A stretch of 32,000 bases of DNA from an uncultured Opitutales bacterium (lineage in GTDB: Bacteria; Verrucomicrobiota; Verrucomicrobiia; Opitutales; Intestinicryptomonadaceae): positions 8,201-40,200 of the forward strand of contig CAKUIA010000021.1 in the NCBI GenBank assembly GCA_934660865.1, written 5' to 3'. Positions 3,962 to 30,843 of the stretch are shown one piece after another. Each line of letters begins with the position of its first letter. The first letter of the stretch is position 1. The notes beneath the pieces were generated by a model. The model had not been told where the DNA came from. It did not search any database and saw nothing but the letters and a program-made list of their open reading frames with translations. Made by a program: the position numbers and the translations under genes.

Positions 3962-6272
3962 TGTCTTTTATCAAAATGTTGCAAAGAGGGTATGTTATGC
4001 AGGTTGAGGCCAGATAAACGCACAATATCGAAAGCGCGGCGGCCGCCCCCAGACTTTTTAGCACGGGGCTTTGCGTTAACGCCAAAGAGCCGAATGCGAT
4101 TATTGTTGTAAGCGCCGAAAGCGCAACGCACGCCTGCGTTTTTGCGGGGGCAAAATTGCCGCTTTTTGCGCATATTGTAAACACGGCATAGTCTTGCGCC
4201 AAACAGATTGCGAAAATAACGAATATTGCGTTTACAGGATTTACCGAAATTTTAAATATGCCCATAAGGGCCGCCGCCCACAAAATTCCCAAAAACACGC
4301 TTAGCATTACAACAAGCGTTTTCTTTGCGCTTTTAAACATAAAAAGCAAATAGGCCACCGCAAACAATACGGCAAAACACGCAAATTTGGCCGTCCAGAT
4401 TTTCGAAAGCGACGCCATATTTTCGCCGAAAGCCCTTGCGTTGTACAGGCTTGCCGAAGGCATAAATTCCCTCAATTTCCGCTCAAGATTTTCGAAATTT
4501 TCGCCGTCGACATTCTTTATTACGGTAAGTGCCGCCTTTTGCGAAATGAAGTTTTCGGCAAAATCGCTAAACGGCGTTTTTTGCAGGCTTTCCATATTGT
4601 GCGCGTTTTGCGCGTTTAACACGGCGTCTTTAAAAAATTCGGGCTTAAAGCCAAGCTCTTTTGCCGATTCGTAAAAGTTTGCAACGGCCTGTTTGCCTTG
4701 CGGCGACGCCCAAAATTTTCGCCAAATTTCGAGGCTTTTTTGCGCGCTTTTGTTTGAGGGGCAAAGCACGCTTGCGCTTTTAAAGTCCAGATTTTGCCCT
4801 TTTAAAAATTCCGCCAAAAGCTCGTTGTTTTGCCTTAAAGCTTCGGGGGTGTCGGCATATACAACGGCGTAGGTGTCGTTGTAAAGGGCGTTTGCCCAAA
4901 GTTTGCCGATCAGCTGCAAGTCGGCCTTTCTTTGGGCGGAAATGCCGTTTAGCGAATTTATGTCGCTTTCGAATTTAATATTGTGCGCAAAAAACAGCGC
5001 GGGCAAAACCGAAAGGGCGGCCACCGCAAACAGCACTTTGCCGAAACGTTTTTGAATGCGGCATACTATCCGCCCGAACTTTTCGAAAACGGTTGTTTTT
5101 TGCAAATTAGCCTTTTTGTATAAAAAGGGTAGGCATAGCGTAAAGACCGCGGTAAGCAGAATGCCCAAAGCGCCGAAAACCCCTAGCTGTGCAAACCCCG
5201 TGTTCGAAAAGAAAAATATTATGGCAAAGGCCGCAATGCTGGTTCCCGCGGCAATGCAGACTGGCTTTGCAAAATCCGCCGCTATTTTGTTGGGGGTGCG
5301 TCCCGATTCTACGGCATAGATTATGTGTATTGCATAGTCTATGCCGACGCCCACGGCTATTGCCGCAAACGCCAGCGCTATCGCCGAAATTTTGTCGTAG
5401 ACAACAGTTAAAATGCAAAACGCCAACGCCATGCCCGCCAAAGACGGGATTATTGCAAATATTAAATTAAGCTTTCGCTTAAAGGCAACGGCGCAAATGC
5501 ACGCCAGCAAAACTGCGGTTATGTATAGCGATTTAGACGATTCGCTTTTCGAGATTTTCGCGTTTTCTGCTCCGGTAATGCAGCCGCCGCTAAAGGCGGT
5601 TTTTGTCCCGAATTTTTTGTCTATTTTTTGCGTCGCATTTTCTGCAAATTCGCAAAAATTTGCCGCCTTTTGCGTGTTCGAGGGAGGGAAATCTACCGTA
5701 GCTACAAGCAGCACATTGCCGTCTTTGCAAAGAAAACCGTTGTTTATTTCGCAGTTTTCGTCTTTAAACGCCGCCAGATAGCCGAAAACAACATTGCACA
5801 TTCCGAAGGGGTCTTTCGCCAAAATTTTCTTTGCAACCGCCCCCTCGGGCGAAAGCATTTTCCTTTTATATTCGGCCAGGCGCTTTTTGGTTTCCTCTTT
5901 TTTTAGGCTGTTTAAAAAGCTTTCGTAATTTGCGTAAAATATGTATGCAAACGAGTTTGTTATGTTGTCTATTGCGCTTTCGAAGTTTTCCGGGGAAGTT
6001 TTCGGGCGGTTTACCTTTGCGCCCGATTTTTCGAGCCTTTCCGATAAATCTTCGGCGGCCGTTAGGGCGTTTTTGCCCGAAATGTTAAAGTATACCTTTT
6101 TCGAAAAATCCAGATTTTCGGCGGCCTTTTTTTGCGATAAAATCGAGTCGTTTACAACGGCAAGTATGTCGAACGGGTTTTCGTCGAAAACCGCATTATG
6201 CAGGCGCAATGCGGCGAAAACGGCTATAAAAGCCGCTGTTAACGCGAAAATAAGCAGATTCTTTTTGCGCAT
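3948..6272 (-). CDS. MMPL/RND-superfamily predicted lipid exporter
   Basis: About 774 aa from the ATG at 6272; a GTG at 6308 is an alternative start. Two hydrophobic multi-TM bundles, each preceded by a large soluble domain. MMPL-like motifs GVGIDYAIHIIY and CLAQDYAVF sit in the two bundles. Overlaps the acyltransferase gene by 14 nt. Confidence 0.7.
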   Translation of the reverse strand: MRKKNLLIFALTAAFIAVFAALRLHNAVFDENPFDILAVVNDSILSQKKAAENLDFSKKVYFNISGKNALTAAEDLSERLEKSGAKVNRPKTSPENFESAIDNITNSFAYIFYANYESFLNSLKKEETKKRLAEYKRKMLSPEGAVAKKILAKDPFGMCNVVFGYLAAFKDENCEINNGFLCKDGNVLLVATVDFPPSNTQKAANFCEFAENATQKIDKKFGTKTAFSGGCITGAENAKISKSESSKSLYITAVLLACICAVAFKRKLNLIFAIIPSLAGMALAFCILTVVYDKISAIALAFAAIAVGVGIDYAIHIIYAVESGRTPNKIAADFAKPVCIAAGTSIAAFAIIFFFSNTGFAQLGVFGALGILLTAVFTLCLPFLYKKANLQKTTVFEKFGRIVCRIQKRFGKVLFAVAALSVLPALFFAHNIKFESDINSLNGISAQRKADLQLIGKLWANALYNDTYAVVYADTPEALRQNNELLAEFLKGQNLDFKSASVLCPSNKSAQKSLEIWRKFWASPQGKQAVANFYESAKELGFKPEFFKDAVLNAQNAHNMESLQKTPFSDFAENFISQKAALTVIKNVDGENFENLERKLREFMPSASLYNARAFGENMASLSKIWTAKFACFAVLFAVAYLLFMFKSAKKTLVVMLSVFLGILWAAALMGIFKISVNPVNAIFVIFAICLAQDYAVFTICAKSGNFAPAKTQACVALSALTTIIAFGSLALTQSPVLKSLGAAAALSILCVYLASTCITYPLCNILIKDNAKR

Positions 6273-27489: not shown

Positions 27490-28392
27490 ATGGAAAATTT
27501 TGCCTCTACATTGCTAGACTATAAGGCGCATTTGCAAATGCAGCTTGGGCTAAGCAAAAATTCGGTTCTTTCGTATGTGGAAGACATTTCGCTTTTCGGC
27601 AAATTTTTGAAAGCCCACGGCAAAACCTCTTTTGAAAGCGCCGATATAGACGACATTTATTTGTGGATAGATTCGATTTCTCCCAAAGTGCGAAGCACAA
27701 CGCAGGCGCGCAAGCTTAGCGCGCTAAAGTCGTTTTCGCTTTTTATGGTAGACGAAAAGCGCTGGCCTCACGACTATACCCAAAAGCTTGTGCGCCCCAA
27801 AGTAAAAAGGGCAGTGCCTACGGCCCTTACTTTGGACGAAGTGGAAAAGCTTTTGTCGGCCCCGAATACAAGCACCTACGAGGGCGCCAGAGATTGCGCA
27901 ATGTTCGAGCTTATGTATTCAAGCGGCCTGCGCGTAAGCGAATTGTGCTCTTTAAAGGCAACCGATATAAATTTCGACGAGAATTTTTTAAGGGTAAAGG
28001 GCAAAGGCTCTAAAGTAAGGCTTGTTCCCTTCGGGCAAGACGCCCGCAACAAACTTGTAGACTATATACGCAACATTCGCTGCACGGTAAAAAACATAAA
28101 AAGCGACGTTCTTTTTATTACCAAGCGCGGCACGCCGCTTTCCAGAAAAACATTTTGGAGCAACATAAAAAAATACGCCGCCGCATGCGGCATAGAAAAG
28201 AACGTAAAGCCGCATATTTTAAGACATTCGTTTGCAACGCACCTGCTGCAAAACGGCGCAAACCTGCTTTCAATTCAGGAAATGCTGGGGCATAGCGACC
28301 TTTCCACAACCCAAATATATACCGAGCTTACAAAAGACACTTTGCTTGAAGAATTTGCAAAACGCCACCCAAGAGACAATATGAAACTTTAA
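27490..28392 (+). CDS. xerD: Tyrosine site-specific recombinase, XerD/XerC family
   Basis: 300 aa. N-terminal SAM-like domain (LSKNSVLSYVEDISLF). Catalytic residues in context: YSSGLRVSEL (Arg), HILRHSFATHLL (H-x-x-R), LGHSDLSTTQIYT (His, Tyr). XerD versus XerC cannot be settled by eye. Confidence 0.8.
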   Translation: MENFASTLLDYKAHLQMQLGLSKNSVLSYVEDISLFGKFLKAHGKTSFESADIDDIYLWIDSISPKVRSTTQARKLSALKSFSLFMVDEKRWPHDYTQKLVRPKVKRAVPTALTLDEVEKLLSAPNTSTYEGARDCAMFELMYSSGLRVSELCSLKATDINFDENFLRVKGKGSKVRLVPFGQDARNKLVDYIRNIRCTVKNIKSDVLFITKRGTPLSRKTFWSNIKKYAAACGIEKNVKPHILRHSFATHLLQNGANLLSIQEMLGHSDLSTTQIYTELTKDTLLEEFAKRHPRDNMKL

Positions 28393-28478: not shown

Positions 28479-28831
28479 CTAATCTTCGTTGGTTTCCTCG
28501 TCTATAATGGCAATGTTTTCGTCTAGCGAGGCGTCGTGGGTTTCCTTTTCGCTTTCGGGCGAAGAGCTATAGTCTTTAATTTCGCCGCGTCTTAGGGCTT
28601 TGGGCTTGGCGTTAAACTGGCTTATAAGCAAGTCGCAAAGCGTCTGCGGGATTTTCGAAAGCGCCTCTTTAAACTCGGGGGTGTCTATCCCGAAAGTTTT
28701 AATGTTTTCCAAAACTTTTTGCTCGGTGGCTTCGTCCGATTCGCTTGTATCCGGTTTTTTCGATACAATCTTTTCGAAGTTTTTTGATACAAAATTCGAT
28801 TCTAAAAGAGCTGTTCTAAGCAGAAGGGCTA
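28479..28831 (-). CDS. dnaX: Putative tau-specific C-terminal extension of DnaX, in the +1 frame relative to the dnaX 0 frame
   Basis: My hand translation of the +1 frame from the A-run gives ...[120 protein letters not shown]. There is no stop. The 77-aa ORF in the track (28479-28712) is the tail of this frame and starts at a TTG. Confidence 0.5.
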
Positions 28832-29964
28832 TTTTTTTTTTGCGTATCCGCCGGTAGGTCGGAAAGTTTTTCCAATTCCTTAATAAGGGTGTTTATCGCC
28901 CTTGTTCGGCTTTGCTCTACCGCCTTTAACAGGGTTACTTCAAAATTTGCCCTTTCCGACAAGCCGCTTCGAAGGGTTTTTACGCCCGACTGCAGGGCGT
29001 CGAGCATGTGCATAATCTGCTCGCTGGAAAGTTTCTTTTCGCCGAAAAGGTAAAAGCCTTCCTTCAACGAATCCATAAGCAACTTTCGCAATTCTATTTG
29101 CAGGTCGTTTAAAGCCCTGTATAAATCGCAGCCGTTGTCTATTAAAGAGGCAACTTCTTTCATTAGCGAGGCGTTGTCGCCCTTTGCCATTGCCGCAATA
29201 ATCGCCGAAATTTGCGCCGTAGATGCAAGGCCGTATACGTTAATTACGTCTTGCTCGGAAATGTTTTTGCCGCAAAACGAAATCATTTGGTCTAAGATAC
29301 TTTGGGCGTCGCGCATACCGCCGTTTGCAAGGCGCGCAATTACATCCAGGGCGGATTTGTCGGTTTTAATGCCTTCCAGTTCGGCAATTTTGGCCAAATG
29401 TGCCGAAATCTTTTCTTCGGGAATCGGCCTAAACTCGAACCTTTGGCACCTTGAAGTTATGGTGCCCAAAACCTTGTGCGCCTCGGTTGTAGCGAATATA
29501 AACTTAACGTGTTTCGGCGGTTCTTCCAAAGTTTTCAGCAGGGCGTTAAAGGCGTCTTGCGTTAAAGAGTGAACTTCGTCGATAATGTAGATTTTATACG
29601 AGCACAAGGTAGGGGCGTATTTGCAGTCCTGCCTAAGCTGGCGTATTTCGTCTATAGAGCGGTTCGACGCGCCGTCTATTTCGACAACGTCCATACATGT
29701 GCCGTTCATTATCGCTTTTGAAATTTCGCTGTCGTCGCTGGGGTGCGAGTTGGGGCCGCCCTCGGCGTTAAGGGCTTTTGCGAATATGCGGGCTACCGTT
29801 GTTTTGCCCGTGCCCCTTGGGCCTACAAAAAGGTAGGCGTGCCCTATACGGCCGGAATCTATCGCGTTTTTAAGCGTGCGCACAACATGTTCCTGCCCAA
29901 CAAGCTCGTCGAATTGCTTGGGGCGGTAGCGCCGCGCTATAACTTGATAGGATTCTCCGGCCAT
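28816..29964 (-). CDS. dnaX: DNA polymerase III subunit gamma/tau, 0-frame (gamma-length) product
   Basis: I prefer the ATG at 29964 ([24 protein letters not shown]; compare E. coli MSYQVLARKWRP). Walker [10 protein letters not shown], Walker B IIDEVH, SRC motif TSRCQRF. The 0 frame ends as ...[10 protein letters not shown], five codons after an A10 run. Confidence 0.9.
28832..28841 (-). other. A10 homopolymer: candidate dnaX recoding (ribosomal or transcriptional slippage) site, or homopolymer miscall
   Basis: Minus strand reads ACG CAA AAA AAA AAT AGC CCT TCT GCT TAG. The -1 frame stops at once (..AAA AAA AAA TAG). The +1 frame is open down to 28479. Confidence 0.6.
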
Positions 29965-29976
29965 AGGGCGCAACAA

Positions 29977-30843
29977 TTATATTTTCACGCCGTCTTCGGT
30001 TGCCCTTTGCAGGTACCTTGCCGACAATTTTTTGGTAACGGGGCCGGGTTTGCCGTCGCCTATTACGCGCGAGTCGAGCTCTACAAGGGGAATCAAACGT
30101 GCCGCAGTTCCGGTAAGGAAACATTCGTCGGCCGTCCAAACATCGAAACGTGTAAGTATTTTTTCTTCGAAAGGAACGCCAAGCTCTTTTGCGATTTCGA
30201 TTACGCTGCGGCGGGTTACGCCAATAAGCGAGCTTGCCGAGCAGGGGGGCGTATACAAAACGCCTTCCGAAACAATAAAGATGTTGTCGCCGCTACATTC
30301 TGCAATGTTGCCCTCGTTGTTCAATAGCACACATTCTTCGTAGCCCAAATTCTTGGCTTCTATCTTTGCCAAAATATTGTTCAGGTAGTTTAGGCTCTTT
30401 ACCATTGGCGGCAAAGCTGCGGGCGAATTTCTGCGTGTGGGAACCGTTATCGCCTTAAGGCCGTTTTCATACAGTTCCTTCGGGTACAATGTAATTTCGT
30501 CGGCAATGATAATCAACTGAGGGTCGGAGCAGGTGAAGGGCGAAATGCCCAACTTGCCTTTGCCGCGCGAAACAACCAGCCTTATATAGCCGTCTTTAAG
30601 GCCGTTTACGCGGCACGATTCGCACACGGCGTCCATAATTTCCTGTTTGCTCCAGGGCAAATCAAGCATAATGGCCTTTGCCGATTTGAAAAGTCTGTTG
30701 ATGTGTACGGGCAGCCTAAATACGTTGCCGCTGTATAGGCGGATACCTTCAAATATACCGTCGCCGTACAAGAAGCCGTGGTCGAAAACCGAAACTTTGG
30801 CTTCGTCTTTTTCGTAGAATTTTCCGTTTATGTAAACTTTCAT
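29977..30843 (-). CDS. ilvE: Branched-chain amino acid aminotransferase (class IV PLP enzyme)
   Basis: 288 aa. VSVFDHGFLYGDGIFEGIR and the overall class IV pattern. Abuts dnaX. A D-amino-acid aminotransferase cannot be fully excluded by eye. Confidence 0.8.
   Translation of the reverse strand: MKVYINGKFYEKDEAKVSVFDHGFLYGDGIFEGIRLYSGNVFRLPVHINRLFKSAKAIMLDLPWSKQEIMDAVCESCRVNGLKDGYIRLVVSRGKGKLGISPFTCSDPQLIIIADEITLYPKELYENGLKAITVPTRRNSPAALPPMVKSLNYLNNILAKIEAKNLGYEECVLLNNEGNIAECSGDNIFIVSEGVLYTPPCSASSLIGVTRRSVIEIAKELGVPFEEKILTRFDVWTADECFLTGTAARLIPLVELDSRVIGDGKPGPVTKKLSARYLQRATEDGVKI

Follow-up and report, generated by a model that had tools for sequence, protein, structure and literature searches.

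A conserved A10 run in dnaX of an Opitutales bacterium, a candidate site of programmed transcriptional slippage with the tau-specific extension in the +1 frame

The dnaX locus

The subject of this report is the dnaX gene of an uncultured Opitutales bacterium, and in particular a run of ten adenines (A10) within it, located on a 32,000-nucleotide stretch of contig CAKUIA010000021.1 (positions 8,201 to 40,200; this whole stretch is called the window below). The gene lies on the minus strand. Its annotated frame, the zero frame, encodes a protein of 382 amino acids (aa) when counted from the ATG at 29964, or of 386 aa from an upstream TTG at 29976, and is closed by a TAG (28816-28818). The ATG is the start chosen by gene callers, which report the 382-aa product on same-species contigs, and it is likely to be the real dnaX start.

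The zero-frame product is unambiguously a DnaX clamp-loader ATPase with its AAA+ module, lid and domain III. It matches the Pfam families DNA_pol3_delta2 (PF13177, E = 1.5e-44), DNAX_ATPase_lid (PF22608, E = 4.4e-15) and DNA_pol3_gamma3 (PF12169, E = 6.5e-6; 26.4 bits against a cutoff of 24.4), and the chains of the E. coli gamma/tau structures match core residues 5-279 with E = 5e-65. Colinearity with the E. coli 1-373 crystal constructs would place the A10 run approximately at the end of domain III.

The A10 run and its three reading frames

On the minus strand, the site reads GAT ACG CAA AAA AAA AAT AGC CCT TCT GCT TAG. The run is the longest homopolymer of the window, the next longest measuring 8 nt. 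Each of the three frames has a different fate beyond it. The zero frame reaches its stop five codons past the run, and the −1 frame encounters a TAG right at the run end. The +1 frame is open from an ATA codon (28830-28832) as far as a stop at 28479-28481; it absorbs a 77-aa open reading frame (ORF) and has the C-terminus ...IIDEETNED. On re-reading, the sequence was found exactly as the initial annotation, made from the letters of the window, had given it, and the observation was confirmed.

The locus thereby shows the features of poly-A recoding, with a core ORF that closes within a few codons of the A run, past domain III. It also has the make-up of a slippage-type site, namely a homopolymer of at least nine A or T, here A10, with the alternative frames closed nearby. 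A second ORF of 117 codons in another frame carries a conserved C-terminus that would be specific to tau, the long form of DnaX, whereas the zero frame encodes a product of the short gamma type. Transcripts simulated from the TTG yield 498 aa with nine As, 499 aa with twelve and 382 aa with eleven. Counted from the ATG, the A9 and A12 tau products have 494 and 495 aa, the A11 gamma product 378 aa and the A10 gamma product 382 aa. The features of the locus are listed in Table 1.

Table 1. Features at the dnaX locus, in coordinates of the window.
Feature	Position	Strand	Basis or remark
dnaX zero-frame ORF (clamp-loader core, gamma-type product)	28816..29964	-	ORF call, Pfam, match to E. coli gamma/tau structures
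A10 run, proposed transcriptional slippage site, beginning with the second base of the codon CAA	28832..28841	-	located in the sequence; homologous site in relatives
TAG stop of the -1 frame, directly 3' of the run	28829..28831	-	would end A11-type transcripts: short gamma ...QKKK
+1-frame extension of 117 codons, putative tau-specific C-terminal part; stop 28479-28481	28482..28832	-	ORF, dN/dS
Initial 22 residues of the extension, abutting the run; the most conserved portion within the clade	28767..28832	-	mean pairwise identity
77-aa ORF, 3' two-thirds of the putative tau extension	28479..28712	-	public annotation 'hypothetical protein SPI34_07450'
Conserved C-terminal module, 45 aa	28569..28703	-	alignment; profile match over 28581-28679

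Conservation of the run within the species and the order

The relatives comprise 80 dnaX loci obtained by a scan of representative genomes and cited here by L numbers. By title, all of them belong to the Opitutales (Verrucomicrobiota) except for two contigs, L066 and L072. The nearest relatives, with a DnaX identity of 70-99%, are host-associated metagenome-assembled genomes and one isolate (human and Hadza gut, rumen, yak, 'Merdousia', CAG:312). The farther ones (60-64% DnaX identity) are mostly marine and include Coraliomargarita, Lentimonas and Puniceicoccaceae.

An A10 run occupies the homologous dnaX site in 76 of the 80 loci, among them the isolate Marseille-Q1082 (L013) and a complete chromosome (L049). 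The remaining loci have A13 (L001), A9 (L036), A6 (L058) or no run at all (L053). The alignment with the dnaX genes of relatives, which had been proposed at the outset as a check, has thus established both that the run is conserved and, as described below, in which frame the extension lies. The 529 kb of related loci contain 77 A10 runs in total, all but one of them at the dnaX site, so the run occurs there far beyond chance. The sole other A10 run (L048:1208-1217) is intergenic, 3' of a porin-like ORF and about 1.8 kb upstream of dnaX.

Within the species, eleven sequences from different samples and assemblers (MEGAHIT, SPAdes, Logan) were compared: the window and ten independent assemblies, of which L001 and L002 belong to the 80 loci and eight were retrieved via the 77-aa ORF. 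Nine of the eleven have A10, namely the window, L002 and seven of the eight retrieved assemblies. One of the two others is L001 (JAXFOH010000130.1, DnaX 99% identical), in which an A13 run at 4124-4136 adds one Lys to every product; with this change of +3, tau is still in the +1 frame and the immediate −1 stop is retained. The other is L088, a Logan assembly of SRR25477886, which has A11 at the dnaX site (994-1004).

Length variants of this kind could point to DNA phase variation, in which subpopulations of genomes with A9 or A12 would produce tau while A10 genomes would produce gamma only. A10 tracts do mutate often through replication slippage, and the A11 and A13 assemblies could represent such variants. 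However, as dnaX belongs to the core replication genes, cells that cannot make tau would not be expected to prevail; nevertheless, almost all assemblies throughout the order agree on A10. The sole clear variant in a representative same-species genome is the frame-preserving A13 of L001. A wide range of length alleles, as is typical of phase-variable loci, is not seen at the dnaX run. Phase variation is therefore very improbable and was rejected.

Frame layouts of tau

Although the run is so constant, the frame in which the tau extension follows it is not. Across the loci, the extension lies in the +1 frame in 26, in the −1 frame in 48 and in the zero frame in 3. By lineage, the +1 arrangement belongs to the host-associated clade and to a second lineage, the −1 arrangement to most marine lineages, and the in-frame arrangement to three lineages. 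All three codon phases of the run (0, 1 and 2) occur among the loci.

The window and L001-L025 form a monophyletic, host-associated clade. All 24 loci that can be assessed have tau in the +1 frame and a TAG or TAA in the −1 frame right at the run end; L021 does not extend past the run. The zero-frame stop follows 2-6 codons past the run in this clade, and 27 codons past it in L022. The 48 loci with tau in the −1 frame belong to the sister clade, which also contains several minority layouts. In L035 and L050, tau is in the +1 frame, the run is in codon phase 2 and the zero frame ends at an immediate TGA. L036 combines A9 with tau in the −1 frame. In L026, L070 and L080, tau is in frame at A10; the sequence after the run in L080 (ATA ACT...) is similar to that of the gut clade, yet it is in frame. 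Candidatus Moanabacter (L053 and L058), with no run and A6, respectively, has lost the run and encodes a plain single-ORF DnaX, and thus represents a natural control lineage without recoding. Several switches of the frame relation, with the run at about 10 nt throughout, are evident from the minority layouts in the sister clade.

Whichever frame carries tau, the others are closed. In 98% of the 154 cases, a non-tau frame ends no more than 8 codons on, a proportion that chance alone would put at about 32%. In the window and in L001-L025, the first codon of the extension (28830-28832 in the window, and the homologous codon elsewhere) is always ATA (Ile), and the codon after it starts with G or A; this combination makes the −1 frame always TAG or TAA in the clade. 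ATA accounts on average for about 50% (17-84%) of the Ile codons in the dnaX cores of the clade, and for 17-26% in several lineages. The pattern suggests that the immediate −1 stop may itself be maintained, an argument limited by the phylogenetic non-independence of the loci.

These layouts bear on an objection to the locus, which had also been one of the two readings in the initial annotation, namely that the genome truly has A9, that tau is a single ORF and that A10 is a miscall of assembly or sequencing. Homopolymers are indeed error-prone on some platforms, and the two deviating assemblies of the same species differ in precisely this feature. The A10 length is nevertheless reproduced across assemblers within the species and in nearly all genomes of the order, an isolate and a complete chromosome included. 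The neighbouring marine clades would have to be corrected in the opposite direction, by the addition of one A, and three lineages already have tau in frame at A10. Every assessable member of the host-associated clade has a TAG or TAA directly past the run, and two-ORF dnaX genes with A10 have been published from finished genomes (PMC3711429). Corrections of opposite sign between clades exclude a systematic miscall, and the artefact, whose probability is practically negligible, was rejected.

The +1 extension as coding sequence

The +1 extension behaves as a protein-coding sequence under purifying selection. Its ratio of nonsynonymous to synonymous substitution rates (dN/dS) is 0.11 in comparison with L001 and 0.06 in comparison with L002. 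The proportion of nonsynonymous differences is lower than that of synonymous differences (pN < pS) in 231 of 231 clade pairs when the +1 frame is read, which is not so in shifted-frame controls over the same alignment columns. The +1 frame contains no stop, whereas each of the other two frames contains 6-7. Mean pairwise identity is 50% in the first 22 residues of the extension, as opposed to 33% downstream of the TTG of the 77-aa ORF.

The public annotation describes a 382-aa DnaX and a 77-aa hypothetical protein. Taken literally, the short gamma-like protein would be the only DnaX product, and the 77-aa ORF would be a separate small gene or a decaying remnant, a view to which the lack of a Pfam domain in the extension would also be congenial. 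Conservation, however, peaks between the run and the TTG of the 77-aa ORF, a stretch of 40 codons, and the extension has no conserved start codon anywhere in the clade. The whole frame of 117 codons is free of stops and under purifying selection, and its terminal module recurs as the C-terminus of single-ORF DnaX proteins in relatives, as described below. Since a stop-free frame under purifying selection, a conservation peak at the run and the lack of a conserved start codon come together here, the 77-aa ORF is best taken as a part of the tau extension and not as an independent gene. The independent gene was rejected on these grounds, and gamma as the only product is extremely improbable.

The extensions of all three frame classes end in a common helical module of about 40 aa, which in the alignment follows the pattern ~L..EA...I....L..L...F.G....VR. 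A profile hidden Markov model (HMM) constructed from −1- and zero-frame loci only was compared with a six-frame translation, in which the +1 ORF of the window is the single significant match (E = 1.3e-4; the next has E = 0.17). In L026, L058, L070 and L080, an ordinary single-ORF DnaX terminates in the module. This arrangement argues that the extension of the window is a tau-specific tail; both Moanabacter loci, L053 and L058, retain the shared module.

Searches beyond the order returned little. In Pfam scans, neither the extension nor any of 42 module sequences matched tau domains IV and V (PF12168, PF12170) at E ≤ 1, and the weak hits obtained were spurious. In a profile search of the extension against the PDB, the best hit was ribosomal protein L29 with E = 0.26, which is spurious. 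Homologues of the 117-aa extension were also sought, but the search yielded just two 77-aa ORFs, nearly identical to each other, and no diverse alignment. As the module has no detectable similarity to the Pfam tau domains or to solved structures, we can only infer that it may be a tau-specific partner-binding element, for the alpha subunit of DNA polymerase III (Pol III) or for DnaB. The label 'tau-like', under which the extension was first noted, therefore holds with respect to position and to homology with the single-ORF DnaX C-termini of relatives, but not with respect to similarity to Pfam tau domains or known structures.

Proposed mechanism: programmed transcriptional slippage

The observations are best accommodated by a dnaX gene of the two-ORF type with programmed transcriptional slippage, in which mRNAs with nine or twelve As would be translated to tau and those with ten or eleven to gamma; the probability of this reading is put at about 0.75. 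RNA polymerase would slip reiteratively on the T10 template, which gives A10 in the mRNA, directly past the clamp-loader core, and generate a mixed mRNA pool. Transcripts with A10, and also those with A13, would encode the 382-aa gamma-type protein ending in ...QKKNSPSA. Transcripts with A11 (also A8 and A14) would run immediately into the TAG and yield the 378-aa gamma that ends in ...QKKK. In transcripts with A9 or A12, that is, with one A fewer or two As more than the template, the downstream 117 codons would be brought into frame and full-length tau of 494 or 495 aa would be made, with the junction ...DTQKK(K)IALLLR... In this way, one gene would supply both clamp-loader subunits, and the essential long form would depend on slippage.

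Support comes from the comparison within the Opitutales, where tau frame and codon phase vary while the run length stays at 10. A constant length with varying phase and frame fits a length-dependent slip of the polymerase that populates all frames and not a phase-specific ribosomal heptamer. Further support lies in the early closure of the non-tau frames and in two experimental precedents for polymerase slippage, dnaX of Thermus thermophilus and tssM1 of Citrobacter rodentium, which are described below. Antonov et al. (2013) take it as a criterion for transcriptional realignment that frame changes of both directions are found within a gene family (PMC3711429), and Opitutales dnaX, in which both directions occur, matches this signature. 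The second reading of the initial annotation, according to which the run is really A10, gamma is the default product and full-length tau requires slippage, is in this respect supported by the conservation of the run, by purifying selection and by the homology of the extension; the inverted arrangement that it described had, however, already been published in 2013.

A change of frame by the ribosome on a faithful A10 mRNA is the alternative of most weight, although it is unlikely. Tau in the +1 frame would then result from a +1 (or −2) slip of tRNA-Lys or from sliding on poly(A). The A run allows tRNA-Lys to re-pair in any frame, E. coli ribosomes slide on homopolymeric A (PMC4363877), the E. 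coli dnaX gene itself uses −1 ribosomal frameshifting, and the −1-frame relatives have an in-phase A_AAA_AAG or A_AAA_AAC heptamer. At the window run, by contrast, the last in-phase heptamer is A_AAA_AAT and not A_AAA_AAG of the E. coli type, and a −1 shift reaches the TAG at once, so that a −1 ribosomal slip cannot make tau here. The codon that enters the A site in the zero frame after the Lys codons is an ordinary AAT, without the pause at a stop or rare codon that is found at +1 sites of the prfB type. A run length fixed at 10 with variable phase and direction is not what a phase-dependent ribosomal signal would predict.

Stimulatory elements for such a ribosomal event were sought as well. 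RNA folds upstream of, downstream of and across the run are no better than those of shuffled sequences (z = −1.39, −0.35 and −0.76), and no stable downstream hairpin was found. Rfam gave no match on the whole window. No AGGAGG-like Shine-Dalgarno motif is obvious in the approximately 30 nt upstream of the run, which were inspected by eye and not by a formal scan. In the E. coli system, Koutmou et al. observed robust sliding at A11 and 'little product' at A9 or A10 (PMC4363877). It is tempting to speculate that the strict A10 is a compromise, long enough for efficient slippage of the polymerase yet below the length at which ribosomes slide.

Several points weigh against transcriptional slippage as the source of tau. 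The slip at the level of transcription and the identity of the dominant transcript species are steps that we infer from the sequence. The +1 layout requires the loss of one A or the gain of two, and since the products described for the slippage gene tssM1 are mostly insertions, the yield of tau could be low. The ribosome may also contribute on the A run. The module is without detectable similarity to the characterised tau domains IV and V, and its tau function would follow from its position and from homology within the order. Finally, the A11 of L088 could be an error, a DNA polymorphism or an RNA-derived sequence that records slippage.

Comparison with known systems

Two-ORF dnaX genes have been described by Antonov, Coakley, Atkins, Baranov and Borodovsky (2013, Nucleic Acids Research 41:6514), who listed 17 of them from 12 genera, nine with A10, including Coraliomargarita akajimensis, Chlorobium, Flavobacterium and Cytophaga (PMC3711429). 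Programmed transcriptional realignment was proposed for these genes (PMC3711429), and the proposal was repeated in the review by Atkins in 2016. As in the window, the core ORF ends just past an A run, which in this type has 7-10 As, the tau C-terminus is encoded by a second ORF and recoding is needed for the longer product; Coraliomargarita akajimensis belongs to the same order. Conservation across species and genera, which rules out sequencing errors and pseudogenes, is found here too, and in both cases the mechanism is a proposal drawn from sequence. The difference lies in the direction. For all 17 genes, the transition given at the DNA level is −1 (PMC3711429); the window does not show it, although 48 related loci do. 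In the window and its host-associated clade, tau is in the +1 frame and would need A9 or A12 instead of A11, and the −1 frame ends in a TAG or TAA right at the run.

The dnaX gene of Thermus thermophilus has an A9 run on which RNA polymerase slips, producing mRNAs with variable numbers of As in all three frames (Larsen et al. 2000, PNAS 97:1683, as summarised by Baranov 2005, PMC1088944). The window shares with it the position of the run past the clamp-loader core and the closure of both non-tau frames within a few codons. In Thermus, however, tau is the templated zero-frame product and gamma arises via slippage, whereas in the window gamma is templated and tau would arise via slippage. The in-frame loci L026, L070 and L080 have exactly the Thermus layout, but with A10.

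For the +1 direction, the closest parallel is tssM1 of Citrobacter rodentium, in which the long product lies in the +1 frame across A11; slippage by RNA polymerase has been shown, with transcripts of 10-15 As (PMC4256274; Gueguen et al. 2014). Both the short and the long form are made and needed, no ribosomal stimulators are present, and insertions dominate the described products (PMC4256274). The window shares with tssM1 a long product encoded in the +1 frame past a poly-A tract. It is, however, an unrelated gene (type VI secretion), has A11 instead of A10, and is restricted to a lineage, in contrast to the conservation of the dnaX run across an order.

The frameshift cassette of E. coli dnaX combines A_AAA_AAG with a Shine-Dalgarno element on its 5' side and a stem-loop on its 3' side; tau is read in the zero frame and gamma after the shift. 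As proposed for the window, gamma and tau come from one gene and diverge just past the clamp-loader core (PMC3711429). The heptamer and the stem-loop are not found at the window run, and on inspection by eye no Shine-Dalgarno element is obvious there.

Implications

As two-ORF dnaX genes with A10 have been known since 2013, the core phenomenon is published and the increment is modest. What appears to be undescribed is the +1 direction and the occurrence of tau in all three frames at a fixed A10 within one order. Literature searches, whose coverage was incomplete, returned nothing on dnaX in the +1 direction or on recoding of verrucomicrobial dnaX beyond Antonov et al. (2013) and the 2016 review, and no description of +1, −1 and zero layouts coexisting at a fixed A10 in one order.

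Going further, the slippage site may have been held at A10 while tau moved among all three frames. Slippage at A10 would populate every frame sufficiently for replication, and lineages would set their tau:gamma ratio by the choice of frame and not by a change of the signal. The clade of the window would then be the first known to have a dnaX whose essential long product derives from transcripts that lack one A or have gained two. For this wider scenario, the chances appear evenly balanced. The importance of the gamma:tau ratio is debated for E. coli. The Opitutales offer a natural experiment in this respect, as related lineages with an identical A10 carry tau in the +1, −1 or zero frame, so that the yields of the transcript classes in vivo and the relevance of the ratio can be compared. 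The supply of an essential replisome subunit appears to rest on non-templated transcription, which would make the fidelity of RNA polymerase a part of the control of replication stoichiometry. There is also a practical consequence for annotation. The gene is currently represented as a truncated, gamma-only dnaX next to a 77-aa 'hypothetical protein', while the real model would be a recoded tau/gamma gene in essentially every Opitutales genome sampled.

Neighbouring genes and minor observations

The alternative TTG start at 29976 directly adjoins the stop of the class-IV aminotransferase gene that lies upstream (29977-30843). On the 3' side, dnaX faces a convergent gene for an XerD-like recombinase on the plus strand (27490-28392), from which it is separated by an AT-rich spacer of 86 nt.

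In L011, runs of C14, G15, C10 and G35 occur at the contig end (4206-4290), inside the expected tau extension, and are almost certainly an assembly artefact of the contig end. The two contigs with titles from outside the order, L066 ('Yoonia sp.') and L072 ('Zhongshania aliphaticivorans'), bear names of Proteobacteria and carry a dnaX of the Opitutales type, with 61-63% identity, A10 and tau in the −1 frame. Their dnaX genes nest among the Opitutales loci in the DnaX tree, and the contigs are probably mis-binned.

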